A stretch of DNA of 64,000 bases from Candidatus Jordarchaeales archaeon (lineage in GTDB: Archaea; Asgardarchaeota; Jordiarchaeia; Jordiarchaeales; Freyrarchaeaceae): positions 104,288-168,287 of the forward strand of contig JAWAHN010000002.1 of the NCBI GenBank assembly GCA_038889235.1, in the 5' to 3' direction. Below, in pieces: positions 38,994 to 64,000 of the stretch. How positions within the stretch are numbered: the first letter of the stretch is position 1; every line of letters starts with the position of its first letter. Under the pieces are notes generated by a model, which made no database searches, had not been told where the DNA came from, and was given only the letters and a program-made list of their open reading frames with translations. A program made the position numbers and the translations under genes.

Positions 38994-40217
38994 TTGAGAA
39001 GTTACTTTTTTAAGTTTCTCCGGCTGATGTTGCTCTCGTTGACGCGTAACCGGAGGCAGTGCACTGTGAAGGTATCTTCTCCCATAGCGGAGGTCGAAGA
39101 ACCACTGTATATCGACAGCTTAAGATGTTTCAGGTGCGGTCTTTGCCGGACCACTTGCCCCGTATTTGAAGTCCAGGGGACTGAAGACTGGAACACACGT
39201 GGCCGCATACTCCTACTAAGAGGGCTAATCTTAGGGGAAATCCAGCTCTCACGTTCACTAGCCGATAGGATCTTCTCATGCACACTGTGTAAGAAATGCG
39301 AGGTTATATGCCCGTCTAAGGTTAACGTAACGCGCCTCATCCAAGAAGCGAGGTTCAGGCTCGTCAAAAACGGTGTGCAGTTCCCAGAGGCGTATCAAAA
39401 ACAGCGAGAAAACATACTGAAATTTGGAACTGTGATGGGAAGACAACTCTCACTCACTAGTAAAATACCTAAAAACGTCAGAATTGCCTGCGACAGCAGC
39501 ACAGTCTTCCACGTTGGATGTGTGGCCAGCGGCTCCTACCCACTTATAGCCCAGCTGGCGCTGGGGGTACTTTCAAGGTTCACCCCTATACGGACATTTG
39601 ACTCTGAGAAGTGTTGTGGTGGAGTCCTTCTAACCATGGGGTGCAGAGAAGACTTCAAGAGTTACTCTGAACGATATGTTAGAGAAGTTGAGGGCGAGAA
39701 AATCGAGAAAATAGTTACACTGTGCCCGATGTGCTACAACACTTTTGCAGAAGAATACCCGTGGAAAGTTGAAGTCCGCCACACATCACAGGTGTACGAG
39801 GAGCTCCTTGACTCTGGAAAACTCAGTTTCACAAGGAGAATTGACGCGTCAGTGGCGTACCACGACCCATGCCACTTGGGACGCCACGCAGGAATATACG
39901 AGCCACCTCGCAAAGTCATAGAAAACATACCTGGAGTAAGGTTTGTGGAACTAGAGTTCCGCCGCGAGCTCTCGGTTTGCTGCGGTGGCCCTGTGAGATC
40001 CTCATACCCGTGGATAAGGGACTATCTCTCGGAGAAGGTGGTTAGGTTAGCGGTTGAAGCTGGAGCGTCATACTTGGCCACAGCTTGCCCCACATGTTTC
40101 CACAACTTGTACTCGGCTTCAATGCTTTCCGACTCTGAAGTAAAAGTTGTTATGGTGGACGAGCTTGTAGGCTTTGCCATCGGCACCCCAGTAGAAATCC
40201 CCCTGTATAAAACATAA
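38994..40217 (+). CDS. Fe-S oxidoreductase with 2x[4Fe-4S] ferredoxin motifs and two CCG domains (GlcF/HdrD-like)
   Basis: CFRCGLCRTTCP and CTLCKKCEVICP. Downstream CCGG and CCGGP Cys-rich CCG motifs. Confidence 0.75.
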   Translation: MRSYFFKFLRLMLLSLTRNRRQCTVKVSSPIAEVEEPLYIDSLRCFRCGLCRTTCPVFEVQGTEDWNTRGRILLLRGLILGEIQLSRSLADRIFSCTLCKKCEVICPSKVNVTRLIQEARFRLVKNGVQFPEAYQKQRENILKFGTVMGRQLSLTSKIPKNVRIACDSSTVFHVGCVASGSYPLIAQLALGVLSRFTPIRTFDSEKCCGGVLLTMGCREDFKSYSERYVREVEGEKIEKIVTLCPMCYNTFAEEYPWKVEVRHTSQVYEELLDSGKLSFTRRIDASVAYHDPCHLGRHAGIYEPPRKVIENIPGVRFVELEFRRELSVCCGGPVRSSYPWIRDYLSEKVVRLAVEAGASYLATACPTCFHNLYSASMLSDSEVKVVMVDELVGFAIGTPVEIPLYKT

Positions 40218-40288: not shown

Positions 40289-41542
40289 ATGGGTAAAACG
40301 CTTGCCGAAAAAATTCTAAGTCTCGCCTCTGGAACTGACGCCTACCAAGGAGACATAGTGGTAGCTAACGTAGACTTTGCCATGGCGCAGGATGGCACAG
40401 CCCCCTTGGCGATTGAAGCCTTCAAGAGTATGGGGGTAGAAAAAGTCTGGGATCCCAGTAGGATAGCGCTCGTCATAGACCACAACGCCCCCAGTCCCAA
40501 CGAAGGTGTCTCGAAGCTACATAAGCTGATGAGAGAGTGGGCTACAAGTCAAGGGGTAATCCTTTACGACATAGGGGAAGGTGTCTGCCACCAAGTTATG
40601 GTGGAGCGTGGACACGTAAAACCTGGAAGAGTCGTCCTAGGAGCCGACAGCCACACATGCACTTACGGTGCGCTCGGCGCCTTGGCTACTGGTATAGGGT
40701 CAACGGAGATGGCTGCTGTCTTTGCAAGCGGCCAGCTCTGGCTGAGAGTCCCAGAAACGTTCCTTGTAATTGTCGAGGGTAAGCTTCCCAACGGGGTCTA
40801 CGCTAAGGACATTGTTTTGTCAGTCATTGGGAAAGTTGGAGCTGACGGGGCAACCTACATGGCCGTTGAGTATACGGGAAGTACCATTAAGGAACTCAGC
40901 CTGGACGGACGGTTAACTCTCTGCAACATGGCTGTAGAAATGGGTGGAAAAACGGGTCTAGTGGCCCCCGACGAGAAAGTGGTCTCCTTCCTAAAGGAGA
41001 GAGGGATAACAGGCGGATACGAGTTACTTGCAAGCGACGAGGATGCAGATTTTGCCGAAAAGCTAGAGCTCGACGCCGAGGACCTAGTGCCGGTCGTTGC
41101 ATGTCCCCACTCTGTGGACAATGTTAAATCAGTAGAAGAAGTTGAAGGAACACCCGTTAGCCAAGTATTCATAGGAACCTGCACTAACGGTAGAATAGAA
41201 GATCTAAGAATCGCTGCAAGAGTTATGAAAGGAAGGAAAGTCAGGGTGAGAACAATAATTGTGCCAGCTTCCAGAGAGGTTTACCTCAAAGCCTTGAGAG
41301 AAGGACTCATTGAGGCATTCGTAGAGGCAGGCGCTACCGTCTGCAACCCTGGATGCGGCCCCTGCGTCGGGACACACCAAGGGATACCGTCACCCGGCGA
41401 CGTTGTCATCTCCACGGCTAATAGAAACTTTAAGGGGAGAATGGGTTGTGACGACGCCGAAATATACCTTGCCTCACCTCACACCGCTGCGCTGGCAGCG
41501 GTAACTGGAGAAATAAGAGACCCTAGAAGGGGAGACATATGA
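40289..41542 (+). CDS. leuC: 3-isopropylmalate (or homoaconitate) dehydratase large subunit
   Basis: Aconitase-family large subunit, 417 aa, with the Cys triad region CGPCVG. Stop TGA overlaps the leuD ATG (ATGA). Confidence 0.85.
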   Translation: MGKTLAEKILSLASGTDAYQGDIVVANVDFAMAQDGTAPLAIEAFKSMGVEKVWDPSRIALVIDHNAPSPNEGVSKLHKLMREWATSQGVILYDIGEGVCHQVMVERGHVKPGRVVLGADSHTCTYGALGALATGIGSTEMAAVFASGQLWLRVPETFLVIVEGKLPNGVYAKDIVLSVIGKVGADGATYMAVEYTGSTIKELSLDGRLTLCNMAVEMGGKTGLVAPDEKVVSFLKERGITGGYELLASDEDADFAEKLELDAEDLVPVVACPHSVDNVKSVEEVEGTPVSQVFIGTCTNGRIEDLRIAARVMKGRKVRVRTIIVPASREVYLKALREGLIEAFVEAGATVCNPGCGPCVGTHQGIPSPGDVVISTANRNFKGRMGCDDAEIYLASPHTAALAAVTGEIRDPRRGDI

Positions 41543-42077
41543 TTAGGGGAAGGGTTTGGAAGTTTCCGGACAACGTTAACACAGACTATATTATACCTGG
41601 AATGTAGCCTGAAAAGTCAGGCTACCTGGAAAGTACAAGTTTAAGACGCTCGACATGGACGAACTGGCTAAACACGCTATGGAAGGCATAGACCCAAGCT
41701 TCTCGAAGAAAGTTAGAAAAGGCGACATAATCGTAGCTGGGAAAAACTTTGGTTGCGGCTCGAGCAGAGAGCAAGCTCCACTAGTCCTCAAACACGTGGG
41801 GATCTCCTTGATCATAGCGGAAAGCTTCGCCCGAATATTCTACCGCAACTCCTTTAACATAGGACTTCCCCTCCTCATATGCAAAGGGATAACCGAAGCC
41901 ACTGACGAAGGCGACGAGCTAGAAGTAGATGTTAGCAGCGGTCGCATACGCAACCTGACAAAGGGCACCGAGTTGTATGCAAACCCAATACCTGACTTCC
42001 TGATGGAGATTGTCAACTCTGGTGGTCTTTCCGAGTACTACAAGAAGCACGGGCGGTTCCCATGGCAAAAAAGGTAG
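41539..42077 (+). CDS. leuD: 3-isopropylmalate dehydratase small subunit, interrupted by a 29-nt BHB intron (exons 41539..41602 and 41632..42077)
   Basis: Exon 1 encodes [21 protein letters not shown], then TAG at 41605. Exon 2 (a different frame) encodes [28 protein letters not shown]...[14 protein letters not shown]. Splicing out 41603..41631 yields a 169-aa LeuD colinear with archaeal LeuD. Confidence 0.8.
41603..41631 (+). other. predicted 29-nt bulge-helix-bulge intron inside leuD mRNA
   Basis: H1 is tac (41594-96) / gta (41633-35). H2 is ctgg (41597-600) / ctgg (41626-29). The bulges are aat (41601-03) and aaa (41630-32). H3 is an 8-bp hairpin 41604-11 / 41618-25 with loop aaaagt. Cleavage after the 2nd bulge nt on both sides removes exactly the 29 nt that the protein alignment requires. 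Confidence 0.75.
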
Positions 42078-43060
42078 GCTACATAGAGGGCGACGGCATA
42101 GGACATGAAATAGTTCCAGTAACTATTGAGATACTCGAAGAGTTAGTCCCACAAATAGAGTTGATACCGATAGAAGCCGGGCTAAACTACATGAAGAAGA
42201 CAGGGAAAAACGTACTCATAAGCGACGAGGCGTTAGAGCTTGCAGCAACATGTGACGCCATACTCAAGGGACCGACGGAAACGCCTCCCGGGCCTGGAAG
42301 TCCGAAAAGCGTAGTAGTCACGCTAAGACAAGCATTAGATCTTTACGCCAACGTACGCCCCTTCCAGTACCCGGGAAAAATAGACGTCATAATAGTCAGA
42401 GAGAACACGGAAGATCTGTACAAGGGAATAGAGCATAGGTTGTCGTCCGACGTCGCCATCGGCGTACGAGTAATAACCCGAAAAGGATCCAAAAGAATAG
42501 CTGAATACGCCTACAAGATGGCGTCCCAATTCGGAAGGCGCAAAGTTACCATAGTCCACAAAGCAACAGTCATGAAAGAGACGTGTGGCCTCTTCAGGGA
42601 GACTTGTCTCGAAGTCGCATCCCAATATCCTTCAATTGAAACGGAAGAAATGCACGTCGACACTATAGCGATGAACTTAGTTCTTAACCCGGCGCGCTTC
42701 GACGTTATACTCACAACCAACATGTTCGGAGATATACTCTCCGACCTCTGTGCTGGCATAGTTGGAAGCATAGGGTTATGCCCGTCGGCAAATGTGGGAG
42801 ATAAAAACGCCATGTTCGAAGCAATACACGGAAGCGCGCCGGACATAGCTGGAAAAGGCATAGCGAACCCCGCGGGAATAATACTCGCAGCAGCACTCAT
42901 GCTCGACTACCTAGGATACACGACCCAAGCAAAAAAGCTCAGAGACGCCACACTAAGCGTGGTAACCGAAAAAGTCAAAGTGACCCCCGACCTAGGCGGC
43001 AACGCCACGACAAGACAAATGGCGGAAGAAATACTTCGAAAAGCCAAGCAAGAAAGCTAA
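42062..43060 (+). CDS. leuB: 3-isopropylmalate dehydrogenase (isocitrate/isopropylmalate dehydrogenase family)
   Basis: N-terminal [19 protein letters not shown] and the [14 protein letters not shown] signature. Confidence 0.85.
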
Positions 43061-52081: not shown

Positions 52082-52960
52082 ATGAAGTGGCTTGCAAGAA
52101 AACTCCACGACCTCAAAGCGGATGACTACAAGGTTCTAGGCGCCCTTGAAAGGGGAATGAAGATGTATGAATTCGTCCCAGTAGACGTAATTACTCGGCT
52201 TTCATCCCTTCATGAGGGGAGAGTGTTGAACATTCTTAGCAAGCTACACGAGTTCAAATTGGTTGTAAGGCAGGTGGGCGACTATGTCGGGTACAGGTTG
52301 ACGGTTCACGGCTTCGACGCCCTCGCTCTAAACGTGCTGGTTAACTTAGGGGTGATAGAATACATCGGCTCTAAACTTGGTGTAGGCAAAGAATCCGACA
52401 TTTACGAGGCTCTCACACCCTCTGGCAGGCGTGTTGCCATAAAGGCTCACAGAATCGGGAGAACAAGTTTTACAAAGGCGAAGAGAGTTCGAAGTTACAT
52501 TAAGGGCAAGATCACCCAGTCAGGGTGGTTTTCTGCTTCATGCAGATCGGCGGAAAGAGAGTACTTTGCCCTTAAAACCCTTCATCCCAATGGTGTTGCT
52601 GTACCAGAACCGATCGGCTTTAACCGGCACATCGTAGTAATGGAGCTCATAGACGGAGACGAATTGGTTAAGTACAAGTTTCTACCAGAACCCGACGATC
52701 TTCTAGAGTCAATAATCGAGAACATAAAGCTAGCCTATGAGTGTGGGATAGTTCACGGAGATCTGAGCGAGTACAACGTGATTGTAACTCCAGAGTTGGA
52801 CGTCTTCCTAATTGACTGGCCTCAATTCGTACCTATCAACCATCCTTCAGCACAATACCTGCTCGAAAGAGACGTCTACAACGTCTTACGGTTCTTCGAA
52901 AGAAAGTTCAATGTTCGGTTAAACTTATCGGAAACCCTTGACTATATTACTAAGGGGTAG
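52082..52960 (+). CDS. rio2: RIO-type serine/threonine protein kinase Rio2
   Basis: N-terminal winged helix. Kinase motifs GVGKESDIY, a catalytic-loop K, and HGDLSEYNV. Confidence 0.8.
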   Translation: MKWLARKLHDLKADDYKVLGALERGMKMYEFVPVDVITRLSSLHEGRVLNILSKLHEFKLVVRQVGDYVGYRLTVHGFDALALNVLVNLGVIEYIGSKLGVGKESDIYEALTPSGRRVAIKAHRIGRTSFTKAKRVRSYIKGKITQSGWFSASCRSAEREYFALKTLHPNGVAVPEPIGFNRHIVVMELIDGDELVKYKFLPEPDDLLESIIENIKLAYECGIVHGDLSEYNVIVTPELDVFLIDWPQFVPINHPSAQYLLERDVYNVLRFFERKFNVRLNLSETLDYITKG

Positions 52961-55016
52961 TCAGAGCAGTCGGCTGGGTCAAAAGATGGAAGCCCCTAAG
53001 AGAGTGCTTGGCGTCGACATACTTCCATCAAGCTCCCCGTCGTCTAAAACCCCCCCAAAGTATGCTGCGTTCCTACTGGAAGACGAGAAAAGCTATGTTT
53101 ACGAGTGTCTTAGCAAGCGTGAGCTACTATCCCTCATAAACTTCGTAAAACCAGACATAGTGGCGTTAGATAACGTGTTTGAGCTCGCCTCTAACCAGGA
53201 GGGGATAATCTCCTTTCTGGCTAGCTGCCCTCCCACTACAAAGCTCGTGCAAGTGACCGGCTCCCCTGTTAGTGGTACTACGCCTCTTTCGGTGCTCGCA
53301 TCCCAAAACGGCATTAAGGTCGAAAGCTTTTCACCCGTCAAAACCGCTGAAGTGTGCGCTAGGCTGGCGGCCAGTGGTGTAGGATACGCTGTACGTGTTT
53401 TTAGAGACGAAACGCGGATAATAATTGCCAGGGGGCGCTGCCCGGGCCATGGAGGCTGGAGCTCAGAGAGATTTAGAAGACGCGTGTATAACTTGATACT
53501 TCAGACAACCAAGGAAATACAGAGGAGACTCGACGAAGCGGGAATAGAATACGAGTTGCACGTAGAGAGGGTCGATGGTGGGGCTAAACGCAGTAAGTTC
53601 ATCGTTTACGCTGAAAGAAGTATTGTAAGCCGGCTGGTTAAACCATATAGGGGGGACGTGATCGTAGCTATTCAACCCGTGTTACTCGAGCATCTAGAAT
53701 GGATACCCCTTACTCAGGGAAGTTTAACCGCAGTTACGCCGAAGAAGGGGCTAATTGTGGGCATAGACCCGGGGGTTACATGTGGCGTCGCCATATTAGA
53801 CCTCAACGGCAACCTTATTCTCCTGGAAAGCGAAAAAGATCTATCCAGAACAGCCCTCGTCAGGAAACTTACCTCTTTCGGTATACCTATTTTGCTCGCC
53901 TCAGACGTAAACCCGCCTCCGAGCTTTCTCGAAAAGTTGGCTGGCATACTCAACTCAAGACTATTTTACCCGCCAAGGAGCCTTACAGTCTCGGAGAAAA
54001 GGGAACTCGTGCAAAAGTTTGTTGAAGAAAAGCGTGTTAAAGTTCAAGACTCGCACCAGCGCGACGCCCTAGCCTCAGCCCTCAAGGCTTTCTACACGTT
54101 CAAGAACAAATTCGAGAAAGTTGAAGCTAAAGCTAGATCCCTAGGCTACCCTATCTCACCTGACCAATTGAAAATAATGGTTTTAAAGGGTCTGTCGCTT
54201 TCGGAGGCAATAAACATGCTTTCATCTTCAAAGGCGAAGGAGGAGACTGTTGAGGAGAAAAAAGTTCAGCCGGAACCAGACCTAAGTGTTCTGATCAACA
54301 AGTTGGAATCATATAGGGTTAAACTCAGGAGGATGAGGAGAAGTCTAATTCGCATCAAAGAGCTAAACACTTCTCTCGTCGCTGAGAAACAAAAGCTGGA
54401 AAACGAGCTTCAACGCCTCCGAGAGCTCTTAGAGAACGTTGACGTTAAAACTAGGTCTGAAGATGTGGAGAGAGTTGTGGAACGCTACAAAGAGGAGATT
54501 AAGATACTTAAAAATGAGATTTTGAAGCTGAAAGAGGAACTTTCAGCTGCACGCCACCAAATTGCAAACCTGAAAAGGATGAGAATTATGGAAATAAGGG
54601 GAGTAGTTTACCCCCTTAAGGTTGTAAGGAGTTTCACTCCGAACGAGATCCGTAGAACGGAGGAAACCGTTGGAATAAACAAAGGAGACATAATCCTCTT
54701 ACTGGATGGAAGCGGAGGCGGGAAGGCTACCGCGAACATGCTGATAGAAAAAGGAATCAAAGCCGTCATTTCCAAGACCGCGATGTCGCACCTAGCTCTT
54801 GAAGCCTTCCTCGAAGCAAACATACCCGTCTTTTTCTCGGACGAAGTTCCTGTTAAGGAAATTGACGACTTCGCCGTAGTAGATAAAAAGGAATTCGACT
54901 CCCTCCTTTCAAACTACCTTAGGGAGAAGGAGAGGATCGAGTTAGAAGAACAGAAGAGGAAGCTGGAGGAACTGCTTAAATCTTACAGAGCTGAAAGAGA
55001 GCAGGAGTTAAACTAA
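52938..55016 (+). CDS. conserved archaeal protein with two RuvC/YqgF-like RNase H-fold segments and C-terminal coiled coil (COG2433/DUF460-like predicted nuclease)
   Basis: VLGVDILPSS...AFLLEDEK and LIVGIDPGVTCGVAILDLNGN resemble resolvase-like Asp motifs. The C-terminal half is Lys/Glu-rich coiled coil. The start is probably MEAPKRV (about 52986). Confidence 0.5.
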   Translation: MTILLRGSQSSRLGQKMEAPKRVLGVDILPSSSPSSKTPPKYAAFLLEDEKSYVYECLSKRELLSLINFVKPDIVALDNVFELASNQEGIISFLASCPPTTKLVQVTGSPVSGTTPLSVLASQNGIKVESFSPVKTAEVCARLAASGVGYAVRVFRDETRIIIARGRCPGHGGWSSERFRRRVYNLILQTTKEIQRRLDEAGIEYELHVERVDGGAKRSKFIVYAERSIVSRLVKPYRGDVIVAIQPVLLEHLEWIPLTQGSLTAVTPKKGLIVGIDPGVTCGVAILDLNGNLILLESEKDLSRTALVRKLTSFGIPILLASDVNPPPSFLEKLAGILNSRLFYPPRSLTVSEKRELVQKFVEEKRVKVQDSHQRDALASALKAFYTFKNKFEKVEAKARSLGYPISPDQLKIMVLKGLSLSEAINMLSSSKAKEETVEEKKVQPEPDLSVLINKLESYRVKLRRMRRSLIRIKELNTSLVAEKQKLENELQRLRELLENVDVKTRSEDVERVVERYKEEIKILKNEILKLKEELSAARHQIANLKRMRIMEIRGVVYPLKVVRSFTPNEIRRTEETVGINKGDIILLLDGSGGGKATANMLIEKGIKAVISKTAMSHLALEAFLEANIPVFFSDEVPVKEIDDFAVVDKKEFDSLLSNYLREKERIELEEQKRKLEELLKSYRAEREQELN

Positions 55017-55039: not shown

Positions 55040-55306
55040 CTACTTCTTCTCCTTCTCCTCCTTCTGGGGGATTTCCTCTGTCAAATCAGGCTTTATGAAG
55101 AGTATGTTATTCCCCCTTATGAATACCTCCCCATACCTAGCTATTGGTCCATCTTCATCCAGTTCCTCGGCATTAGTTAGACATAGGTTCATGTACGAAT
55201 CTATGTGTGAAAGCCTTCCTTGAATCGTTCTACCATCTTTCAACTTCACTAGAATCAAGTTGTTAATAGCTTTTTGCAGAACAGCTAGAGGCTGGCTTCC
55301 AGACAT
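55040..55306 (-). CDS. Sm-like archaeal protein (LSm)
   Basis: Sm1/Sm2 motifs LNNLILVKLKDGRTIQGRL...IRGNNILFI. Confidence 0.75.
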   Translation of the reverse strand: MSGSQPLAVLQKAINNLILVKLKDGRTIQGRLSHIDSYMNLCLTNAEELDEDGPIARYGEVFIRGNNILFIKPDLTEEIPQKEEKEKK

Positions 55307-55490: not shown

Positions 55491-56795
55491 TTGGCAACTA
55501 GAATGGAAGAAGCAAGCAGACTCTCACTGACCGAGGAAATTAAAGCCGTCGCTGAAGAAGAAGGAATACCGCCGGAGAAGGTTGCGAGGAGACTTGGAAG
55601 AGGAGAAGTAGTTATAGTTAGGAATGTTGTACGAGAAGTGAAGCCGCTAGGTATAGGAAAAGGATTAAGGACTAAAATTAATGCCAACATAGGGACCTCT
55701 TCTGAAGTTTGTGACGTCGAATTAGAGCTCAGGAAGGCGTTTATAGCAATAAGGTATGGTGCTGACACGATAATGGACCTTAGCACCGGAGGGGACTTGG
55801 ACACTATAAGGAGGCGTATCTTAAAGTCGGTTAACGTCCCCGTAGGCACAGTCCCCATATACCAGGCAGGCATCGAAGCTGCAAGGAAAAAAGGCGCAAT
55901 AATCGATATGGATGAAGATGATATGTTCAACGCGATCGAAAAACACGCTAAGGATGGTGTAGATTTCGTCACCGTTCACGTCGGTGTGACAAAGGAGAAC
56001 GTGAAAAAACTTGTTGAAAGCAAACGAATAATCCCCATGGTGAGCAGAGGAGGAACTTTCCACGCAGCCTGGATATTACACCACGACAAAGAGAACCCGC
56101 TTTACGAGAACTTCGACTACCTGCTTGAAATAGCCAGACAGTATGACATGACTCTAAGCCTAGGAGACGGTCTAAGACCTGGGTGCATCCATGACGCCAC
56201 AGATGTGCTTCAAATATCTGAGCTCGTGACGATAAGCCGCTTAGTTGAAAGAGCCAGAGAAAAGGGTGTGCAGGTGATCGTTGAAGGTCCCGGACACGTG
56301 CCTATAAATGAAATTGCAGCGAACATAAGGCTGCAGAAATCCATGTGCAAGAATGCCCCCTTCTATGTCCTCGGTCCACTAGTAACAGATATTGCCCCAG
56401 GATACGATCACATCGTAGGTGCCATAGGGGGTGCTATAGCCGCTCTTGAAGGAGCGGACTTCCTTTGTTACGTTACTCCCGCAGAACATTTACGCCTGCC
56501 CGGAGAAGAGGATGTGAAACTTGGCGTTATAGCAGCGAAGATAGCTGCTCACGTCGCCGACATAGCTAAGCTTGGCCAAAGAGCGGCTAAGTGGGATGAC
56601 GAAATGGCGAAGGCCAGAGTTAGCCTTGACTGGGGGAAGCAGTTTAGTCTAGCAATAGACCCCGAGAAAGCGAGGGCCTACCATGAACAAGGCACTACAA
56701 GAAAGACCGCATGTACCATGTGCGGGGAATATTGTGCAATGAAACTCATATCCGAAGCTTTGGGGCGAAAAGACTTTTCCCGGCTTACCTGTTAA
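55491..56795 (+). CDS. thiC: phosphomethylpyrimidine synthase ThiC
   Basis: 434 aa. The radical-SAM-like C-terminal CTMCGEYCAMK Cys motif and the conserved ThiC core. Confidence 0.9.
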   Translation: MATRMEEASRLSLTEEIKAVAEEEGIPPEKVARRLGRGEVVIVRNVVREVKPLGIGKGLRTKINANIGTSSEVCDVELELRKAFIAIRYGADTIMDLSTGGDLDTIRRRILKSVNVPVGTVPIYQAGIEAARKKGAIIDMDEDDMFNAIEKHAKDGVDFVTVHVGVTKENVKKLVESKRIIPMVSRGGTFHAAWILHHDKENPLYENFDYLLEIARQYDMTLSLGDGLRPGCIHDATDVLQISELVTISRLVERAREKGVQVIVEGPGHVPINEIAANIRLQKSMCKNAPFYVLGPLVTDIAPGYDHIVGAIGGAIAALEGADFLCYVTPAEHLRLPGEEDVKLGVIAAKIAAHVADIAKLGQRAAKWDDEMAKARVSLDWGKQFSLAIDPEKARAYHEQGTTRKTACTMCGEYCAMKLISEALGRKDFSRLTC

Positions 56796-57517
56796 CCTTT
56801 CTTTTTGATCAATAAAGCTATTGGGAGACTGGCTTTCTTCCACTCAGCATATTTTCCCTCGTACTCGATAGGTGGCATTGTTCTGCCATGCGTTCCCACT
56901 ATGGTTATCAGAGTGTCTGGTTGTGCTTGCCTGTAAAGCACCTTCACCCAGCTGTCTGTTCTAGTAATAAGTTTTTGAGCGGTTTCCTTAGGAGGTTGAA
57001 AGCTGTACTGCCTGTAAAGTTCTTCAAAGTCTAGGAAGTGAACCCAAATAAAGTCGGCTCTGTTAAGAACTTTAACAGTTTCCACATAGCTCTTATTGTC
57101 GGAATCACTAACCTTAACCTCCCCCTTACCACCTATCGCCGTGATGTCTTCTTTTCTGTCAATTATCACAGTTCGCTTTCCAAGTGACGACAAATAGGTG
57201 AACATGTTAAAGTCAGAGCTTCCTCCACAAACCAGTTCCTTAAGGACGTGGGGGGTGTGCGGGTTTTTTGTTTCAAGAGTTATGACGGCCTCGGACATGC
57301 CTATTATAAAGCGCGGCTTATAATACGTGCATTCTAGCAGGCCGAAGTGGTCTATAACTATCACTACGATGCGCTTCGAAACGAACTTCTCTGGCAGGTT
57401 AACTTTCGGTGGGATGTTCTTAGGGGGCTCTATACTCATAACACTCAAGAAAGTTGAAGCCATCTGACTTACCAAGCCCTGAAAAGTCAGTAGTTCGCAC
57501 ATGCGCAAATCCACCAT
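56792..57517 (-). CDS. alkaline-phosphatase-like metalloenzyme domain protein (uncertain)
   Basis: VVIVIDHFGLL and ...IVGTHGR resemble the metal-ligand segments of the Metalloenzyme/phosphopentomutase superfamily. The protein is short, at 241 aa. Confidence 0.35.
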   Translation of the reverse strand: MVDLRMCELLTFQGLVSQMASTFLSVMSIEPPKNIPPKVNLPEKFVSKRIVVIVIDHFGLLECTYYKPRFIIGMSEAVITLETKNPHTPHVLKELVCGGSSDFNMFTYLSSLGKRTVIIDRKEDITAIGGKGEVKVSDSDNKSYVETVKVLNRADFIWVHFLDFEELYRQYSFQPPKETAQKLITRTDSWVKVLYRQAQPDTLITIVGTHGRTMPPIEYEGKYAEWKKASLPIALLIKKKG

Positions 57518-57732: not shown

Positions 57733-58686
57733 TTGCCCCTAACCGACCTTTTAGAAGAACGTAGAGTTTCCTTCCTGTTATTCGGAGGAAAAGGTGGCGT
57801 AGGAAAAACCACGTGCTCTGCGGCTTCAGCTCTCTGGGCAGCTGAACACGGTAAGGAAACCATTATAATAAGCACCGATCCCGCTCACAGTTTGAGTGAT
57901 AGCTTCGACCAGCAACTAGGGGGAGGAGAAGTAAAGAAAGTGGAGGGTTGCAGCGGCCTCTATGCACTAGAACTTGACCCTAGGAAAGCCTTTGAAGAAT
58001 ACAAAAGAAAGCTTTCGGAGGCAGAGGGATTTGAGGAGCAAGCCCAAGCTGTTCTCCAGGAACTAGGTGACCTCTCTAGTATGACTCCCCCCGGTGTGGA
58101 CGAAGCCCTAGCCTTTGCAAAAGTGCTCGAGTTCATTGAAAACCCGGAATACGACTTAGTGGTTTTCGACACCGCCCCAACAGGACACACTCTGCGCCTG
58201 TTAAGCTTACCCGATATACTAAACAGCTGGGTTGTGAACCTCATAAAGATAAGGGTTTACATGAGCAAGCTGACCGGCCTCCTAAAACGGCTTATAGGGC
58301 GTGGAGGCGAGGAAGATAAGACGCTAGAAGTTCTAGAAAAGTTGAGAGAGACCATAGGCGTTGCCAGAGAAACCCTTAAAGATCCCAATCAAACGGCATT
58401 TGTTGTAGTGATGATACCTGAAGTCATGGCAATCTACGAAACTGAGCGCCTTCTCTCGTCACTAATAGAGTACGAAATTCCATGTGACCACATAGTTGTC
58501 AACATGATCTACCCAGATGTACCCGGCTGTCCCTTCTGCCGCGCGAGGAGACAGATGCAACAGGAAAACCTAAAAAACATAAGGGAAATATACGACGACT
58601 TCAACATAACAGAAATCCCGCTTTTCGACACAGAGATAAGAGGGTTAAACATGCTCAGAAAGGTCTCAGAGCTACTCTTCACTTGA
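57733..58686 (+). CDS. ArsA/Get3-family ATPase
   Basis: GGKGGVGKTTCSAA P-loop, DPAHSLSD switch, DTAPTGHTLRLL and a C-terminal CPFC pair. Confidence 0.85.
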   Translation: MPLTDLLEERRVSFLLFGGKGGVGKTTCSAASALWAAEHGKETIIISTDPAHSLSDSFDQQLGGGEVKKVEGCSGLYALELDPRKAFEEYKRKLSEAEGFEEQAQAVLQELGDLSSMTPPGVDEALAFAKVLEFIENPEYDLVVFDTAPTGHTLRLLSLPDILNSWVVNLIKIRVYMSKLTGLLKRLIGRGGEEDKTLEVLEKLRETIGVARETLKDPNQTAFVVVMIPEVMAIYETERLLSSLIEYEIPCDHIVVNMIYPDVPGCPFCRARRQMQQENLKNIREIYDDFNITEIPLFDTEIRGLNMLRKVSELLFT

Positions 58687-58688
58687 AA

Positions 58689-59807
58689 TTACAGCAGCCT
58701 AGCGACAAACTCGGAAATGTCGCAGACCACTATCCTGTTCTCCGACAAGCTTTCGAGCTGGCTCTTACAGAAAGGACATGCTGTAACTAAAACCTCCGCT
58801 CCAGTAGCTACAGCTTCCTTAACCCTTTCTGTGCCTATTTTGCGAGAAAGTTCTGGAAAGTTCACGTAGAGAACTCCGCCACGACCGCAACACTTTGCGT
58901 TTTTCCTGTTCCACTCCATTTCCAAAAGGCGGACTCCCGGAATACTGCTTAAAACACTTCTAGGCTCTTCATAAACGTGCATTCTTCTCCCAAGGTGGCA
59001 TGGATCGTGATACGTTACGCTAACACTCTTCCCCAGGTCTTTTAACTCAATTTTCCCCTCACTAATAGCCCCCCACAAATACTGGCTTAAGTGTAAAACT
59101 TCGACGTTAAGTGGGAACCCAAGTTTTGGATACTCGCGGGAAAGTGCCATATAACAGCCAGCACAAGAGGTGACAACGACTTCGCAACCACTTTTCTCCA
59201 CCTCTCTCCTGTTATGATCAGCGTGCTCCATGGCTAGCTTCTTATGTCCCGCTGAGAGGAGCGGTACTCCACAACACCACTCGTCCCCAATCAACTTGAA
59301 ACCACCCTCAACTAGCTCAAGTATCTTCGTCGTAGCTCTCGCTATCTCCGGCTGCCTATACGCGGCCGTGCAGCCTACAAAGTAAGCCACTCTCCCCTTA
59401 CCACTCTTTTTTCCACTTAGCACGTTGAACCTTTTTGCATGTGCCTCTCCATAAGGGTTCTTTTCACTCTCCACCTTCCTACTAAGTTCAATAGTTGCCT
59501 CAGGGGCGGCGCCCTCCTCGAAGATCCTTGCTCTCACTTCTTTAACTATTTCTGGAACGTCAATGCTAGGCAAGCACCATTCCTTGCAAAGCCCACAAGT
59601 GGCGCACTGGTACATGATGTCCACCACTCTACCTTTAAGCTCAACTTTTCCGTTGCGCAGGTAGTATGCTGTAAAGGATTTCCCGTACGGAGCCACACTT
59701 TCAAGCTTAAGCTGGTTCGCTACGATGCAAACAAAACGACACATTTTCATGCATTCCACTCCGCACATAACCACAGGATCTGCGCTCACCAAGACAAACC
59801 CTCCCAA
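58689..59807 (-). CDS. CCG-domain Fe-S protein (GlpC/HdrD-like)
   Basis: N-terminal CxxCxxCxxxC-like Cys pairs. C-terminal CCGV and CCGRGG Cys-rich motifs. Confidence 0.7.
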   Translation of the reverse strand: MGGFVLVSADPVVMCGVECMKMCRFVCIVANQLKLESVAPYGKSFTAYYLRNGKVELKGRVVDIMYQCATCGLCKEWCLPSIDVPEIVKEVRARIFEEGAAPEATIELSRKVESEKNPYGEAHAKRFNVLSGKKSGKGRVAYFVGCTAAYRQPEIARATTKILELVEGGFKLIGDEWCCGVPLLSAGHKKLAMEHADHNRREVEKSGCEVVVTSCAGCYMALSREYPKLGFPLNVEVLHLSQYLWGAISEGKIELKDLGKSVSVTYHDPCHLGRRMHVYEEPRSVLSSIPGVRLLEMEWNRKNAKCCGRGGVLYVNFPELSRKIGTERVKEAVATGAEVLVTACPFCKSQLESLSENRIVVCDISEFVARLL

Positions 59808-59813
59808 GCTTTC

Positions 59814-61253
59814 CTAAAATCCAAGCTTTCCCGGGTTCATTATGTTGTTCGGGTCTAACGCTTTCTTTATTGTTTTCAACACCTCAAATGCCTCCCCATG
59901 CTCCCTATGCATCCACCCAGCCCTAACAACACCAATACCGTGATGGTGGCTTATGGTTCCACCAACTCTCAGGCAGGCTTCAAGTGCATCTCTCCATACC
60001 GCGCTGTACACTTCCACTGCTTTTTCGTGGCTTTGTTGCTGCGTGAAGAAGATCATGTATATTGAGCCACCGTCCTCGTAGAAGTGGGAGAAGTGTGCCA
60101 TCATGGTTACTCCCGGATTTTTGGTCTCAACGGTCTTCTTAATCTCCCAGTAGAGTTCTTCGAGCTTATCGTAGGTCGCCGCGACGTCAACCGTGTCCGC
60201 TATTATATTGTATGACGACCTCAAGGGGTCAGGGTAGTACATGTCATATCTATGGTTCCACCAGTACTCTGCAAGCTCCTTATCAACCTCCACACCACCC
60301 TCATTAAGACAAATTTCCGTGGCGATTCTCTCCTCTAACTCTACAATCTCCTTTAAGCCGTCAAATCCCAGTATCAAGTATGATCCACCTTCAGGTATCT
60401 TTGCCCTCCCTTTAAGCGTAAACTGCGCGTCTAGGTAGTCGTAGAGGCGCACCACGCAGGGCTTTATTCCCTTACGGAAGATTTTGATGACCGATTCTAT
60501 TCCAGAGTGGAGATCCTTGAATATGAAAGCTTTAAACCTCCTCTCCTCTGGGAGAGGTTTTATCTTCAACGTCACCTCCGTTATTATTCCAAGCGTTCCC
60601 TCAGAGCCTATAAAGAGTTGCTTCAAATCCGGCCCCGTGGACGAGCGAGGTACTGGTTTCATCCTTAAAATCTCACCCGTCGGTGTAACCACTTCGAGCC
60701 CAACAACCATGTCTTCAATTTTCCCATACTTCGACGAAAGTGACCCTGCAGAGCGACAGGCTACAAAGCCCCCTACCGTTGAGCAGTACATTGATGCGGG
60801 GTAATGGGGGAGAGTGTAACCCATTTTATTTAGCTCTCTCTCTAAAACCTCTCCAAAGATTCCCGGCTGCACGGTTACAAGTAACGACTTGTGATCTACG
60901 TTGAGTATCTTGTTCATCTTCTTTAGGTCTACTATTATGCCACCGTTTACCGGAATTGTTCCACCACAGACACCAGCTCCTCCTCCGAAGGGTATCAAGG
61001 GGATCTTGAATCTATTAGCCAGCTTAACGATTTCCGAGACTTGCTTAGTGTTTTCAGGATGCACTATAAAATCTGGCTTCGGCAGCTCACCTCCACCTTT
61101 AATCCAAGGCACAAGTAACTGCCAAGTGTCACGTGAATAACACAGCGCATCGACCTCGTTGAAGTGAACATTCTCTTTACCCACTATGCCGACCAGCTCT
61201 TCGTATATAATCTTCTTCTGTAACAGATCTCTTTTCCACGTGTTCAAACACAA
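59814..61253 (-). CDS. FAD-linked oxidase (GlcD / D-lactate dehydrogenase family)
   Basis: FAD_binding_4 (PCMH) domain with RFKIPLIPFGGGAGVCGG, and a C-terminal FAD-oxidase_C domain. Confidence 0.85.
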   Translation of the reverse strand: MCLNTWKRDLLQKKIIYEELVGIVGKENVHFNEVDALCYSRDTWQLLVPWIKGGGELPKPDFIVHPENTKQVSEIVKLANRFKIPLIPFGGGAGVCGGTIPVNGGIIVDLKKMNKILNVDHKSLLVTVQPGIFGEVLERELNKMGYTLPHYPASMYCSTVGGFVACRSAGSLSSKYGKIEDMVVGLEVVTPTGEILRMKPVPRSSTGPDLKQLFIGSEGTLGIITEVTLKIKPLPEERRFKAFIFKDLHSGIESVIKIFRKGIKPCVVRLYDYLDAQFTLKGRAKIPEGGSYLILGFDGLKEIVELEERIATEICLNEGGVEVDKELAEYWWNHRYDMYYPDPLRSSYNIIADTVDVAATYDKLEELYWEIKKTVETKNPGVTMMAHFSHFYEDGGSIYMIFFTQQQSHEKAVEVYSAVWRDALEACLRVGGTISHHHGIGVVRAGWMHREHGEAFEVLKTIKKALDPNNIMNPGKLGF

Positions 61254-61259
61254 ACCCCC

Positions 61260-62480
61260 TCACTCCGAGTATATCCTCTTAGCCAGGAAAACTACGAAGT
61301 CGTCAACCGTCACGTTAATTCGTTTACGTGTAACACCCTCTGAAATGTTAATAGTGCAGAGGGGACATGGCGTCACCAGGGATCCGATGTCAGACCTGGA
61401 AACCGCGTCAAGCCTCTTACTTCTTATCAGCGCGGAAACCGTCGGGTTATAGAACCTGAGCAAGCCACCCGCTCCACAGCATTCACCGTCATCTTGTAGG
61501 ATGACGTACTCAACATTTGGCAACGCCTCCAGTATTCTTTCAGCATAATCAATGGTGTATCTTCCAACGTGCCTACCTAGGTGGCAGGATTGATGTAGCG
61601 CAACTTTAATTTTGTCGCCATTACGCGCCTTCTTACTTATCGCGTCAACACCAACCTCCTCAAACAGAAACTCGACTAAGTGTCTCACGCGGATGTCGTA
61701 GCCAAGCCGCTTAGCTGCCAACTTGAGCTCCGAAGTACACCCAGCACAAGTGGCGACAACCTCTCTCACACCTATTTCCTCCATCTTCCCAAAAAAGTCC
61801 TGTTGCAGCTTGTCAGCCATCGCGACGTCCCCTGCAAGTCTCACCGGGAGGCCACAGCACTTCCAACCCTCTGGAATTCCGTAATATACTTCGAATGCCT
61901 CTAAGACGAGTTTTCCAGCCTCCTTAACCTCCAACAATTTAGCTTCAGCCTGGCACCCTGGAAAATAGGCTACCTGTCCCTCTTCCCTAAGAGGGACATC
62001 GCCTCTTAACGGTAACCCCAAAGCTTTAAGCCTCCACTCGACTCTCTCCTTCCTCTCCTCAGGGCTCATAGGCTCAAATATGTAGCCGTATCTCGAAACG
62101 TTTTCCAGCAAGGATTTGAATTCTTCTGGCACTAGGTCGGGTCTTTGAACAAATATTTTCGCCCTAAGAAGCATAACCGCTTCCGGCACAGGAACATTTG
62201 TCGGGCACTTTTCCTGGCATCGTCCGCACAGCGTGCACATGTAGATTACCTCGCTCGCTCTCCAAAACTCTCTGACATCTCTCGAGAGCTCGTCCGCTAT
62301 CCCGCGTGGTCCAGGGTAAAACCTGCCTGTAGCCTCGAAAACAGGGCAGAATGTGAGGCACAACGAACAATTCTGGCACTTCTCCACTTCACTATAAATT
62401 TCATCCTCATACAACGAGAAAACCACTATTTTCTCCTCTGCGAGCACTTTCTTTATGTGAATAACCTCTTTTCTCTCCAT
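61260..62480 (-). CDS. Fe-S subunit with 2x[4Fe-4S] and two CCG domains (GlcF-like)
   Basis: CQNCSLCLTFCP and CTLCGRCQEKCP. CCGLPV and CCGAGG CCG motifs. Confidence 0.8.
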   Translation of the reverse strand: MERKEVIHIKKVLAEEKIVVFSLYEDEIYSEVEKCQNCSLCLTFCPVFEATGRFYPGPRGIADELSRDVREFWRASEVIYMCTLCGRCQEKCPTNVPVPEAVMLLRAKIFVQRPDLVPEEFKSLLENVSRYGYIFEPMSPEERKERVEWRLKALGLPLRGDVPLREEGQVAYFPGCQAEAKLLEVKEAGKLVLEAFEVYYGIPEGWKCCGLPVRLAGDVAMADKLQQDFFGKMEEIGVREVVATCAGCTSELKLAAKRLGYDIRVRHLVEFLFEEVGVDAISKKARNGDKIKVALHQSCHLGRHVGRYTIDYAERILEALPNVEYVILQDDGECCGAGGLLRFYNPTVSALIRSKRLDAVSRSDIGSLVTPCPLCTINISEGVTRKRINVTVDDFVVFLAKRIYSE

Positions 62481-62493
62481 AACTCCCCCCCTT

Positions 62494-63816
62494 TTAGCTC
62501 GCCTGCATCGCTGCCTCCTCTCCTGCTATATAACCCGTAACTGCCGCAACGCCCATCCCGCTCTTCTCCCTCACATAGTTGTAACCTGAAATTATGGATC
62601 CCGCAACAAACAAGTTGTCGTATAGTGTTTTGTCACCCATAACGGGCTTCATATGTGCGTTAACCCTAACACCGCAACCCATGAGGGGATGTCCTTCCGC
62701 AGGAAAGACCTCTTTAGACAGGAGGTGTGCTATTTTTCGCTTCCCCAACGGCTCTCCTTTCTCGTCGTAAAGTGGGAGTCCGAACACGGTTTCCCTTATT
62801 CTGTCCTCCTCTTCCACAAGTCCTCCTCCAACGAACTTCCCAGTTGCTAAAATATACGCCTCAGCTATTGCGGTGAAAACCTTCTCTCCCGATTTAACTT
62901 TTAAGTTCACAACGCGCCCCCCTTCCTTTTCGAACCCGACAGCTTTATACCCCCTAAGGATTCTTACTCCTTTTTCCACAGCCTTCCTTTCAAGCGCGCT
63001 CATTAGTCTCTGAGCTGGCACTGACGGGGGCGGTGACAGCAGCTCGAACATGGTCACCCCTATTTCTCTTTCTAGCGCTTCCACGTTTCCCTGCGGCCTC
63101 CTCAACCCAAGTGTCGGGAGAGCTACGTGTGAAGCGCCACTTTCGGACACTATACCGCTAAGTTTCTCAGCCAACTCCATCTTAAACTCGTCCCCATCCA
63201 TTACCCTCGCCAACTCTACAGTCGTCAGGTTTACTTCTCTTAAACTCGGGAAGGAAAGTCTAACACCTACCACTTTTTCAATTTTGACGTTGAGTTTAGA
63301 TGCAAAGTGTTTGAAACTCAAAGAGCAGAAGTTTGGGTTAAAGCTGGATAAGCCCTCAAATCCCACGACGAGCAGCCTAGCTCCATCTAACTTCTCTAGC
63401 ACCCCTCCCTTCATCGGCAACTGGTAAAAACAGGTAACCTTGAAGCTCCCCATAGTGTTTAGAAGCACAACATTTCTATTGAGGTCTCCTCTTATCTCAG
63501 CTTCTCGGCCAGAAACCATCCTCGAAAGATACTCGACAGCTTCTCTAACAGCCTCGACAACATCCCTCTCACTCGAGATAACCGAGTAAGGGTGCGTCGG
63601 CGAGCATTCAACTGTTTGTGCTATTCCATCAATGGGGTTTAAAACTAAGCCTCCTCCTGGGGGACACCCCATGATATCGATGACTCCGGAGGACTGATAG
63701 CTGGCTCCTGAACCTTTTTCGATGACGACAACATCTAGTTTTTCGTCAGCCGCTCTTGTTGCAGCCAGTATACCTGCTAGCCCGCCGCCTATTACGATCA
63801 CATCAGCCTCGATCAA
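62494..63816 (-). CDS. GlpB-like FAD-dependent oxidoreductase (anaerobic glycerol-3-phosphate dehydrogenase subunit B family)
   Basis: ADVIVIGGGLAGILAA dinucleotide fold, then YQSSGVIDIMG (compare the GlpB HFSSGSLDLL segment). TTG start at 63816 overlaps the upstream stop. Confidence 0.6.
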   Translation of the reverse strand: MIEADVIVIGGGLAGILAATRAADEKLDVVVIEKGSGASYQSSGVIDIMGCPPGGGLVLNPIDGIAQTVECSPTHPYSVISSERDVVEAVREAVEYLSRMVSGREAEIRGDLNRNVVLLNTMGSFKVTCFYQLPMKGGVLEKLDGARLLVVGFEGLSSFNPNFCSLSFKHFASKLNVKIEKVVGVRLSFPSLREVNLTTVELARVMDGDEFKMELAEKLSGIVSESGASHVALPTLGLRRPQGNVEALEREIGVTMFELLSPPPSVPAQRLMSALERKAVEKGVRILRGYKAVGFEKEGGRVVNLKVKSGEKVFTAIAEAYILATGKFVGGGLVEEEDRIRETVFGLPLYDEKGEPLGKRKIAHLLSKEVFPAEGHPLMGCGVRVNAHMKPVMGDKTLYDNLFVAGSIISGYNYVREKSGMGVAAVTGYIAGEEAAMQAS

Positions 63817-64000
63817 GTAGCCGCTCCCCTCACAACATCCATTGATCCAACAGAAGCATACGCTGCCTGGGAAATCTCATACTCAATAAGCTGACTTCCT
63901 CTTAAAACGATGGAGTGCCCTTTCCACCTTTCCGCCAGAAATTCCTTAAGCTCTCTGAACGCCTCGTCAACCCCTAATCCCCTCTCCTCCGCCAGTATTG
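63813..64000 (-). CDS. C-terminal fragment of an upstream oxidoreductase gene (GlpA-like?), partial at window edge
   Basis: An open frame ending ...SQLIEYEISQAAYASVGSMDVVRGAAT with stop TGA at 63813-15. It continues beyond position 64000. Confidence 0.4.
   Translation of the reverse strand, partial: ILAEERGLGVDEAFRELKEFLAERWKGHSIVLRGSQLIEYEISQAAYASVGSMDVVRGAAT

Follow-up and report, generated by a model that had tools for sequence, protein, structure and literature searches.

What kind of enzyme is encoded by the two genes that follow an anaerobic-type glycerol-3-phosphate (G3P) dehydrogenase at the end of a 64,000-nucleotide stretch of an Asgard archaeal genome (Candidatus Jordarchaeales, contig JAWAHN010000002.1; the whole stretch is called the window below)? 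The two genes encode a flavoprotein, here named X, and an iron-sulfur protein with CCG domains, here named CCG2, and an initial annotation had seen in this cluster a mixture of G3P dehydrogenase (GlpABC) and glycolate oxidase (GlcDEF) elements. X and its CCG partner would appear to constitute a family of enzymes that is widespread, as yet uncharacterised and equipped with an active site of the type found in alkyldihydroxyacetonephosphate synthase (ADPS, also AGPS). Tentatively, and with a confidence that stays somewhat short of even, we read the X-CCG2 pair as a second two-subunit flavo-iron-sulfur dehydrogenase acting on a substrate of the glycerol-phosphate or dihydroxyacetone phosphate (DHAP) type within a glycerol-oxidising operon.

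Five open reading frames (ORFs), co-directional and tightly packed on the minus strand, lie at the end of the window, as established from the ORF listing and by direct reading of the strand (Table 1). The start of glpB overlaps the stop of glpA by 4 nt (TTGA), and the remaining gaps measure 13 nt between glpB and the gene for a GlpC-like protein, 6-12 nt between the latter and X, and 6-21 nt between X and CCG2, depending on the start codon. At NCBI, a protein with 100% identity to X is assigned to a metagenome-assembled genome (MAG) of Candidatus Jordarchaeales, and the source contig, the 163.5-kb Logan contig L001, carries an identical GlpB. Extension upstream on this contig, as had been proposed, recovered the full GlpA of 544 aa, with an FGGY kinase (484 aa) directly 5' of it; because of this kinase the complete unit comprises six genes rather than five, namely those for the FGGY kinase, GlpA, GlpB, the GlpC-like protein, X and CCG2, so that the five-gene cluster described initially is correct for the window but one gene short of the unit. 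In a scan of positions 58000-64000 promoter- and terminator-like sites were no commoner than in shuffled sequence, and no minus-strand terminator-like site was found inside the cluster, the consensus used being bacterial and the host archaeal, so that the scan counts only as weak evidence. The view of this locus as a real, conserved redox cluster of non-standard subunit composition is thus upheld by the five ORFs and by synteny in other Asgard genomes. Chance adjacency of the genes was rejected on the grounds of synteny across phyla.

The domain calls agree with the earlier assignment of GlpA/GlpB-type subunits accompanied by two CCG Fe-S proteins. The partial GlpA peptide within the window matches the GlpA C-terminus (TIGR03377 positions 481-524). 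The full protein possesses DAO, DAO_C and C-terminal BFD-like [2Fe-2S] (Fer2_BFD) domains; its full-length identity to E. coli GlpA amounts to 37.7%, and its scores lie near the curated cut-offs but under both of them (455 bits versus 553 on TIGR03377, 399 versus 425 on NF008313). GlpB passes the curated model TIGR03378 (203.9 bits versus a cut-off of 174.15), is covered by FAD_binding_2 over the whole protein and shares 24% full-length identity with E. coli GlpB. As judged from sequence, GlpA and GlpB are probably a bona fide anaerobic G3P dehydrogenase pair, for which oxidation of sn-G3P is predicted. The GlpC-like protein carries two CX2CX2CX3C ferredoxin motifs and two CCG domains (Pfam Fer4_8 plus two CCG matches), and every one of its Cys motifs is kept in nine upstream-type homologues. 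Its top NCBIfam matches are TfrB, LdhH and GlpC, each under cut-off (115 and 84 bits on the GlpC models, with cut-offs of 278 and 280), the GlcF model being far lower (52 bits versus 333), and in BLAST it shares 24% identity and 80 bits with E. coli GlpC.

X itself consists of Pfam FAD_binding_4 and FAD-oxidase_C domains and had been described as GlcD-like, a description that proved misleading, since X reaches only 267 of the 568 bits needed on TIGR00387 and 143.5 of 897 bits on NF008408; in the NCBIfam release of June 2026 neither X nor CCG2 passes any model. When X was compared with PDB sequences by phmmer, the best matches were the ADPS enzymes of Dictyostelium (2e-69) and mammals (9e-64), at 33-34% identity, followed by mouse D-lactate dehydrogenase (mLDHD, 8e-47) and by LctD and a glycolate oxidase (about 4e-43). 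An AlphaFold (AF2) model of X (pLDDT, the model's own confidence measure, 83) gave a similar picture, as the top 33 Foldseek matches in the PDB are all ADPS/AGPS chains. By E-value and identity ADPS takes first place, yet the TM-scores to mLDHD and ADPS are nearly equal (0.82 vs 0.83), and hence the fold by itself does not tell synthase and dehydrogenase apart. In a neighbour-joining tree of 385 columns, X and ADPS form a clade that excludes mLDHD and E. coli GlcD (EcGlcD) in 91 of 100 bootstraps; this tree, with few outgroups and with ADPS and mLDHD sequences taken from HMMER alignments minus their unaligned segments, does not fix the position of ADPS with regard to the X subfamilies (monophyly of X alone, 24/100).

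The active site points in the same direction. Arg419, Tyr578 and the His615-His617 loop, numbered as in the Cavia enzyme, are presumably the catalytic residues of ADPS, with roles as in Nenci et al. 2012. The first two positions were located through the mutant entries 4bc7 (R419H) and 4bca (Y578F), and the residues of X aligned to all of them are an Arg in RLYD, a Tyr in GGSIY and an SHHHG loop; the pocket predicted for X, strongly basic and of a shape to suit DHAP or G3P, is formed by Arg267, Arg333 and His434-436. We take these conserved residues to be the ones that hold the DHAP moiety in ADPS. The Arg and the Tyr are kept in at least 95% of 86 X homologues, and an HHH or HQH loop is found in the archaeal X subfamily. 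Mouse LDHD binds Mn2+ through His398, His405 and Glu442 and uses His443 as base (PMC10589216), and at these four positions X has His, Tyr, His and His, so that H/Y/H replaces the H/H/E metal ligands. The active site of X is therefore predicted to follow the ADPS pattern and to be devoid of the metal site of D-lactate and glycolate dehydrogenases, which would make the term "GlcD-like" true at superfamily level only. X is shorter than ADPS and lacks its N-terminal domain, X residue 58 aligning with ADPS residues 136 and 205. The X family is the probable nearest prokaryotic relative of eukaryotic AGPS.

CCG2 had been noted merely as a second CCG-domain protein, which holds as far as the CCG domains are concerned but says too little, in view of eight further conserved Cys that would serve two cubane clusters. 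Its Pfam matches are two CCG domains and a weak Fer4_8, and its Cys motifs comprise CX3CX3CX3C, CX2CX2CX3C and two complete five-Cys CCG motifs; all 18 Cys are conserved at 91% or more in 22 partners of HHH-type X. CCG2 is thus a predicted complete HdrD-like protein with the Cys residues for two cubane clusters beyond its CCG domains, and its homologues are named "heterodisulfide reductase subunit D" by JGI, the NCBI name being "(Fe-S)-binding protein". In BLAST it shares 29% identity and 108 bits with E. coli GlpC and 44 bits with E. coli GlcF, and it is accordingly closer to E. coli GlpC than is the protein in the glpC position, to which it is 29% identical. Like the GlpC-like protein it has its best NCBIfam matches in TfrB (thiol:fumarate reductase), LdhH and GlpC, with 42.8 bits against a cut-off of 333 on the GlcF model; the two Fe-S subunits, formerly called GlcF-like, are both nearer to GlpC, HdrD and TfrB. 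Of the proposed mixture of GlpABC and GlcDEF the GlpAB half can consequently be kept, whereas the GlcDEF half fails, the GlcD and GlcF scores being far under cut-off and GlcE missing, and neither the HMM scores nor the bacterial-consensus scan found an ordinary GlcDEF set plus an unrelated flavoprotein with internal promoters or terminators. A simple chimera of GlcDEF plus GlpAB was rejected on those scores, the metal triad and the missing GlcE.

Fusions of X were sought among 1.84 billion cluster representatives, followed by Pfam scans and sequence inspection, and all those found carry the SHHHG loop. Protein P0292 (894 aa) joins X to Fer4_8 and two CCG domains, and for one member, from Bacillota, the name given is "FAD-binding and (Fe-S)-binding domain-containing protein". 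From this fusion, taken together with the adjacency of the two genes in 29 of 30 loci of the HHH type (see below) and with the 18 conserved Cys of CCG2, it follows that X and the CCG protein belong together as what is predicted to be one enzyme. In P0304 X is fused to a PfkB sugar kinase and in P0387 to a Cof-type HAD phosphatase, which suggests that the substrate is sugar-like and phosphorylated. Others join X to a second FAD_binding_4 domain (P0242, P0243 and P0251, 726-989 aa), and P0339 (643 aa) has an N-terminal extension and a long cap insert, being ADPS-like in length.

To place the operon in a wider context, 80 genome loci with X homologues (cited by L numbers) were compared by tblastn and by clustering of all flanking ORFs, with up to 10 kb covered on each side. 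The loop aligned to the HHH of ADPS divides the X family into an HHH/HQH type (30 loci), with members in Asgard lineages, Thermoplasmatota, one Nitrososphaeria and assorted bacteria, and an NEHHG type (51 loci). In the HHH-type loci the CCG protein that adjoins X is mostly encoded directly downstream, often with an overlap. GlpA or GlpB homologues occur in the flanks of 13 of these 30 loci, as opposed to none of the 51 NEHHG loci, and an FGGY kinase in 12. At 50-84% X identity the operon arrangement is kept in Jordarchaeia (L002/L003), the uncultured archaeon L011 and complete genomes of Atabeyarchaeia and Thorarchaeota: the order FGGY-GlpA-GlpB-GlpC-X-CCG2 is found in L002/L003, L011 and Thorarchaeota CP070761.1, and Atabeyarchaeia CP147779.1 has the same six genes with the kinase two genes further upstream. 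Two bacterial MAGs (L047, L063) show GlpA-GlpB-CCG-X-CCG, one Jordarchaeia lineage (L005/L006) has GlpA-GlpB-GlpC-X without CCG2, and FGGY-X-CCG alone is found in L010 and in Baldrarchaeum (L008), which thus has a kinase and a predicted dehydrogenase only. In the loci with X-CCG only (L007, L008 and L009), the neighbours are unrelated housekeeping genes only.

The Thermoplasmatota MAGs L041 and L074 provide a further case, with the order X-CCG-[DAO+BFD]-[Pyr_redox_2]-[DUF1667]-GlpK, in which a G3P dehydrogenase of the GlpTk-NOX-MOX type stands beside a canonical GlpK (611 bits). The DAO+BFD protein has an N-terminal BON domain match, Pyr_redox_2 being the "NOX" and DUF1667 the "MOX" component. 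As far as gene order can tell, this arrangement shows the same functional link of X-CCG to a G3P dehydrogenase as is predicted for the window. Because GlpA or GlpB accompanies X in 13 of the 30 HHH-type loci, the bacterial L047 and L063 included, and because of L041 and L074, X-CCG is considered to be tied to G3P metabolism.

On the basis of these data, the operon would serve the uptake side of glycerol and G3P oxidation, and the following sequence of events would apply to it. The FGGY kinase would phosphorylate glycerol or a close polyol to a glycerol phosphate, and GlpA, with its FAD (flavin adenine dinucleotide) and BFD-type [2Fe-2S] cluster, would oxidise G3P to DHAP, with GlpB handing the electrons on to the GlpC-like subunit and its cubane and CCG (non-cubane) clusters. 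X and CCG2 would make up a flavo-iron-sulfur dehydrogenase of their own, a heterodimer with the architecture of GlcD/GlcF or of fused Dld-II, in which the ADPS-type site of X (Arg, Tyr and His-His-His, without metal) would hold a DHAP- or G3P-like phosphorylated C3 unit before the flavin, and electrons would run from FAD through two [4Fe-4S] clusters and two CCG clusters to a quinone or a disulfide/thiol carrier. That the substrate is phosphorylated is suggested by the P0304 and P0387 fusions, by the FGGY kinase in 44 of 51 NEHHG loci and by the conserved ADPS residues; our best guess, which we infer from these comparisons, is sn-G3P with another acceptor, sn-glycerol-1-phosphate (G1P) or a DHAP derivative. 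Since X-CCG accompanies G3P dehydrogenases and does not replace them, its role is probably complementary, through the use of another acceptor, of the other glycerol-phosphate stereoisomer or of a step at the DHAP level.

Several observations weigh against this dehydrogenase reading. The FGGY kinase passes no curated cut-off and falls far short of the GlpK models (225 bits versus 590 on TIGR01311 and 213 versus 498 on NF000756), its top model matches being LsrK (288 bits) and XylB (280 bits), both under cut-off; in a PDB search LsrK (215.7) and the glycerol kinase of Thermococcus kodakarensis (214.5) come out about equal. We take R83, E84, W103, Y135, D245, Q246 and F270 to be the glycerol-binding residues of E. 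coli GlpK, in a numbering that was checked against L087. In the alignment R83, W103, D245, Q246 and F270 are kept but E84 is replaced by Ala; Y135 is unaligned, equally so in a canonical GlpK, and the alignment is therefore unreliable at that point. We read this protein as a divergent enzyme that resembles glycerol kinases but is uncertain in its specificity, and its product may differ from G3P. In addition, a second G3P-type dehydrogenase beside GlpABC in one operon looks redundant, no transmembrane helix is predicted in any of the six proteins of this operon, for which a membrane-associated enzyme had initially been suggested, and, given the L005/L006 arrangement, X might dock on GlpC rather than act independently. 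Finally, ADPS is not a net redox enzyme, and the kept residues could thus mean covalent-flavin chemistry and not dehydrogenation.

Several other explanations were weighed. It seems unlikely that X-CCG2 is a D-2-hydroxyacid dehydrogenase of the D-lactate or glycolate type, as in the initial GlcD/GlcF reading, which might for example clear methylglyoxal-derived D-lactate when DHAP builds up, although the connection between glycerol use and methylglyoxal is established physiology and counts in its favour. The superfamily and the two-subunit architecture of FAD and Fe-S/CCG components are common to GlcDEF and bacterial D-lactate dehydrogenases, the TM-score of X to mLDHD is as high as that to ADPS, and both an Arg aligned with Arg347 of mLDHD and the equivalent of its catalytic His443 are kept. 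On the other hand, the Mn/Zn ligands His405 and Glu442 have given way to Tyr and His, X groups with ADPS apart from mLDHD and EcGlcD, the operon has no GlcE, the GlcD models and the similarity of CCG2 to GlcF yield low scores, and the sugar kinase and phosphatase fusions suggest phosphorylated substrates. Markedly less probable still is a reductive role, in which X-CCG2 would be the electron sink of GlpABC, electrons from G3P travelling via the CCG proteins or a thiol/disulfide carrier to the FAD of X, which would reduce DHAP to sn-glycerol-1-phosphate or another acceptor in a net electron-neutral conversion of glycerol-derived G3P. The apparent redundancy would then vanish, the operon does hold two HdrD-like proteins whose best NCBIfam match is TfrB, the single CCG protein in the L005/L006 order GlpA-GlpB-GlpC-X suggests physical coupling, and X-CCG accompanies G3P dehydrogenases of two unrelated types. 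However, this proposal is purely inferential. Making G1P is normally the task of an NAD(P)H-dependent G1P dehydrogenase, no G3P dehydrogenase lies within 10 kb of X-CCG in Baldrarchaeum and in several loci of Promethearchaeota and Helarchaeota, and the glpAB-X-CCG layout also occurs in bacteria (L047, L063) that are not expected to need G1P.

We consider it very improbable that X is a true alkyl-DHAP synthase, for which DHAP derived from GlpABC would be acylated and its acyl group swapped for an alcohol to yield a precursor of ether-linked, G3P-type lipids. ADPS enzymes are the top sequence and fold matches of X, which clusters with them and retains equivalents of Arg419, Tyr578 and HHH615-617, its gene lies directly downstream of those for a DHAP-producing enzyme, and the origin of eukaryotic AGPS is unresolved (bioRxiv 10.1101/2025.10.10.681575), but the absence from X of the 135-200 aa N-terminal domain speaks against a synthase, as does the fact that ADPS needs no Fe-S partner, whereas X nearly always has an HdrD-like protein at its side, in some cases as part of the same polypeptide. 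Moreover, no acyltransferase or fatty-acyl reductase gene was present in the operons examined (operons only), the same family sits in sugar-catabolic operons of PVC (Planctomycetes-Verrucomicrobia-Chlamydiae) bacteria, and the preprint just cited found no plasmalogen pathway in Archaea. We grant the same very small likelihood to the related idea that X would keep ADPS-type covalent-flavin chemistry on a DHAP-derived substrate, and so perform an Asgard alkyl-DHAP-synthase-like step from glycerol-derived DHAP. If true, such a step would either lead towards ether lipids with a G3P backbone or stand for the dehydrogenase ancestor of eukaryotic AGPS, and, Asgard archaea being the closest archaeal relatives of eukaryotes, it would bear directly on the lipid divide and on the origin of AGPS. 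What probability remains belongs to something not yet imagined, and a dehydrogenase of phosphorylated C3 compounds, held tentatively, continues to be the reading we favour.

From the presence of GlpK and GlpABC, Valentin-Alvarado et al. (PMC11291895) predicted that Atabeyarchaeia and Freyarchaeia use glycerol anaerobically, the two downstream genes going unmentioned, and a survey of archaeal G3P dehydrogenases distinguished GlpABC, GlpA-CoxG, GlpA-SdhBCD and GlpTk-NOX-MOX types but no X-CCG module (PMC11962113). A 2025 preprint on plasmalogen origins, the one that reported no plasmalogen pathway in Archaea, length-filtered its hits and obtained no phylogenetic signal for AGPS (bioRxiv 10.1101/2025.10.10.681575). 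In the literature on AGPS homologues in Asgard and other archaea, on K00803 and on glycerol-kinase operons, we found no description of X-CCG or of a connection between this pair and the glp genes. The Asgard glycerol operon holds two conserved genes more than GlpK and GlpABC, for an enzyme that is named by no curated model. Taken at face value, the label "alkyldihydroxyacetonephosphate synthase" that JGI gives to X (NCBI: "FAD-binding oxidoreductase") would wrongly imply ether-lipid synthesis, and a GlcD label would as wrongly imply glycolate oxidation. X-CCG offers a well-defined target for biochemistry, being probably a new dehydrogenase that acts on a phosphorylated triose or polyol, and its family is also relevant to the evolution of AGPS.

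The NEHHG-type loci, mostly from Verrucomicrobiota, Lentisphaerota and Kiritimatiellota, form a group of their own, in which a XylB-like FGGY kinase is encoded directly upstream of X in 44 of 51 cases and the CCG partner has lost most of its CCG cysteines. The gene order is PfkB kinase, SftI-like (sulfoquinovose-isomerase-like) isomerase, IolB-like protein, FGGY kinase, X, CCG protein and class II aldolase, and this sugar-catabolic operon is highly conserved and apparently undescribed. It is seen in L021, L025-L031 and L036-L081, and also in Bryobacteraceae, with a DeoR regulator first and with NagB-like, GFO/MocA, MFS and ThuA-like genes often added. In bacterial L015, L029, L033, L035 and L076 the genes form a tandem X-X'-CCG, a layout resembling GlcD-GlcE-GlcF, and the loop of one X copy reads SHAYG in L029 and L033 and SHAHG in L035. 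In the Thorarchaeota locus L084 (CP070761.1) a radical SAM gene overlaps CCG2 by 4 nt and is followed by genes for a GNAT acetyltransferase and an aldehyde dehydrogenase; L011 is listed with this continuation beyond CCG2, and such genes are absent from the Jordarchaeales window.

Table 1. Positions of the operon genes, of neighbouring genes and of compared loci (window numbering unless a locus is named).
Feature	Position	Strand	Length	Assignment or content
CCG2	58689-59792 (gene-caller start; longest ORF to 59807)	-	367 aa	HdrD/GlpC-like Fe-S protein
X	59814-61247 (gene-caller start; ORF start possible at 61253)	-	477 aa	VAO/FAD-linked-oxidase flavoprotein, ADPS clade
GlpC-like	61260-62480	-	406 aa	HdrD-type Fe-S subunit, Fer4_8 + two CCG
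glpB	62494-63816	-	440 aa	Second flavoprotein subunit of G3P dehydrogenase
glpA, 3' end	63813-64000	-	Last 61 codons + stop	Catalytic FAD subunit, anaerobic-type G3P dehydrogenase
glpA, full	L001 8370-10004		544 aa	As above
Small GTPase	L001 4798-5328		176 aa	Arf/Ras/Roc type
Beta-galactosidase-like	36045-38417			GH35/GH42
Third HdrD-like protein	38994-40217	+		Fer4_8 + two CCG
Aconitase-family and dehydrogenase-like genes	40289-43060			Aconitase-family large and small subunits; isopropylmalate/isocitrate-dehydrogenase-like
DUF460 protein	52938-55016	+	692 aa	DUF460
LSM gene	55040-55306			Sm-like
ORF between ThiC and ArsA genes	56792-57517	-	241 aa
ArsA/Get3 gene	57733-58686	+		ArsA/Get3/TRC40-family ATPase
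Thermoplasmatota locus	L041 9935-17528			X-CCG with GlpTk-NOX-MOX type and GlpK
NEHHG-type operon	L027 6010-13401			Example
NEHHG-type operon	L045 6516-14776			Example
Thorarchaeota locus	L084 10504-13992			Operon continuation after CCG2
Uncultured archaeon locus	L011 12582-18911			Operon with continuation beyond CCG2

Two neighbours had been offered as context for the cluster, the ArsA/Get3 ATPase and a further CCG protein, and both were judged unrelated to the operon. The ArsA/Get3 gene is convergent with the operon, their stop codons being 2 nt apart, and is outside it; the protein is single-domain and Get3-like and scores 327 bits on TIGR00345 (cut-off 135). The third HdrD-like protein is 30% identical to CCG2, and its gene sits alone between the beta-galactosidase-like gene and the aconitase-family group, with no flavoprotein partner adjacent to it. 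Elsewhere in the window, the DUF460 protein has a long coiled-coil-like segment rich in Lys and Glu, the Sm-like gene follows it, and the ORF between the ThiC and ArsA genes is without a Pfam or NCBIfam match. About 5 kb beyond the window end, L001 encodes a small GTPase typical of Asgard genomes, which adjoins genes resembling those of coenzyme A biosynthesis (GHMP kinase, PPS_PS, ApbA and a pyridoxal-dependent decarboxylase).

How, then, does the system compare with those already known? Among solved structures the closest counterpart of X, by sequence and by Foldseek, is ADPS/AGPS (EC 2.5.1.26; PDB 2uuu, 4bby), with which it has the VAO-type FAD fold and the Arg/Tyr/HHH equivalents in common; ADPS acts on a derivative of DHAP, and the X gene adjoins genes for DHAP-producing enzymes. 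ADPS differs in its 584-658 aa and in an N-terminal domain, some 135 aa long in Dictyostelium and some 200 aa in mammals, which is absent from the 477 aa of X, and X for its part has an HdrD-like Fe-S partner and no FAR or GNPAT genes nearby. Dld-II-type D-lactate dehydrogenases have an FAD/Fe-S architecture in fused form. GlcDEF and the fused YdiJ, whose model X matches under cut-off, resemble X-CCG2 in joining a VAO flavoprotein to a ferredoxin/CCG module, with genes that are adjacent and translationally coupled and with fusions that occur, but in X the H/H/E metal triad has become His/Tyr/His, GlcE is missing and the CCG subunit is nearer to GlpC/HdrD/TfrB. Both Fe-S proteins of the operon share with the HdrD/TfrB/GlpC family the two ferredoxin-type motifs and two CCG motifs, each CCG motif complete with five Cys, the differences being the unusual CX3CX3CX3C spacing of the first motif of CCG2 and the lack of an HdrE-type membrane partner nearby. 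The GlpTk-NOX-MOX enzyme of Thermococcus kodakarensis (PMC11962113) is unrelated to GlpABC and of a type not present in the window, and yet X-CCG lies directly upstream of this type in L041 and L074. With the GlpK-GlpABC pathway of E. coli and Haloferax volcanii, finally, the operon shares the order kinase, glpA, glpB, glpC, a GlpA with DAO, DAO_C and BFD domains and a GlpC-like protein with two [4Fe-4S] motifs and two CCG domains; it differs in that its kinase is non-canonical, its GlpC-like protein stays under the GlpC cut-offs and two extra conserved genes, X and CCG2, are appended here.

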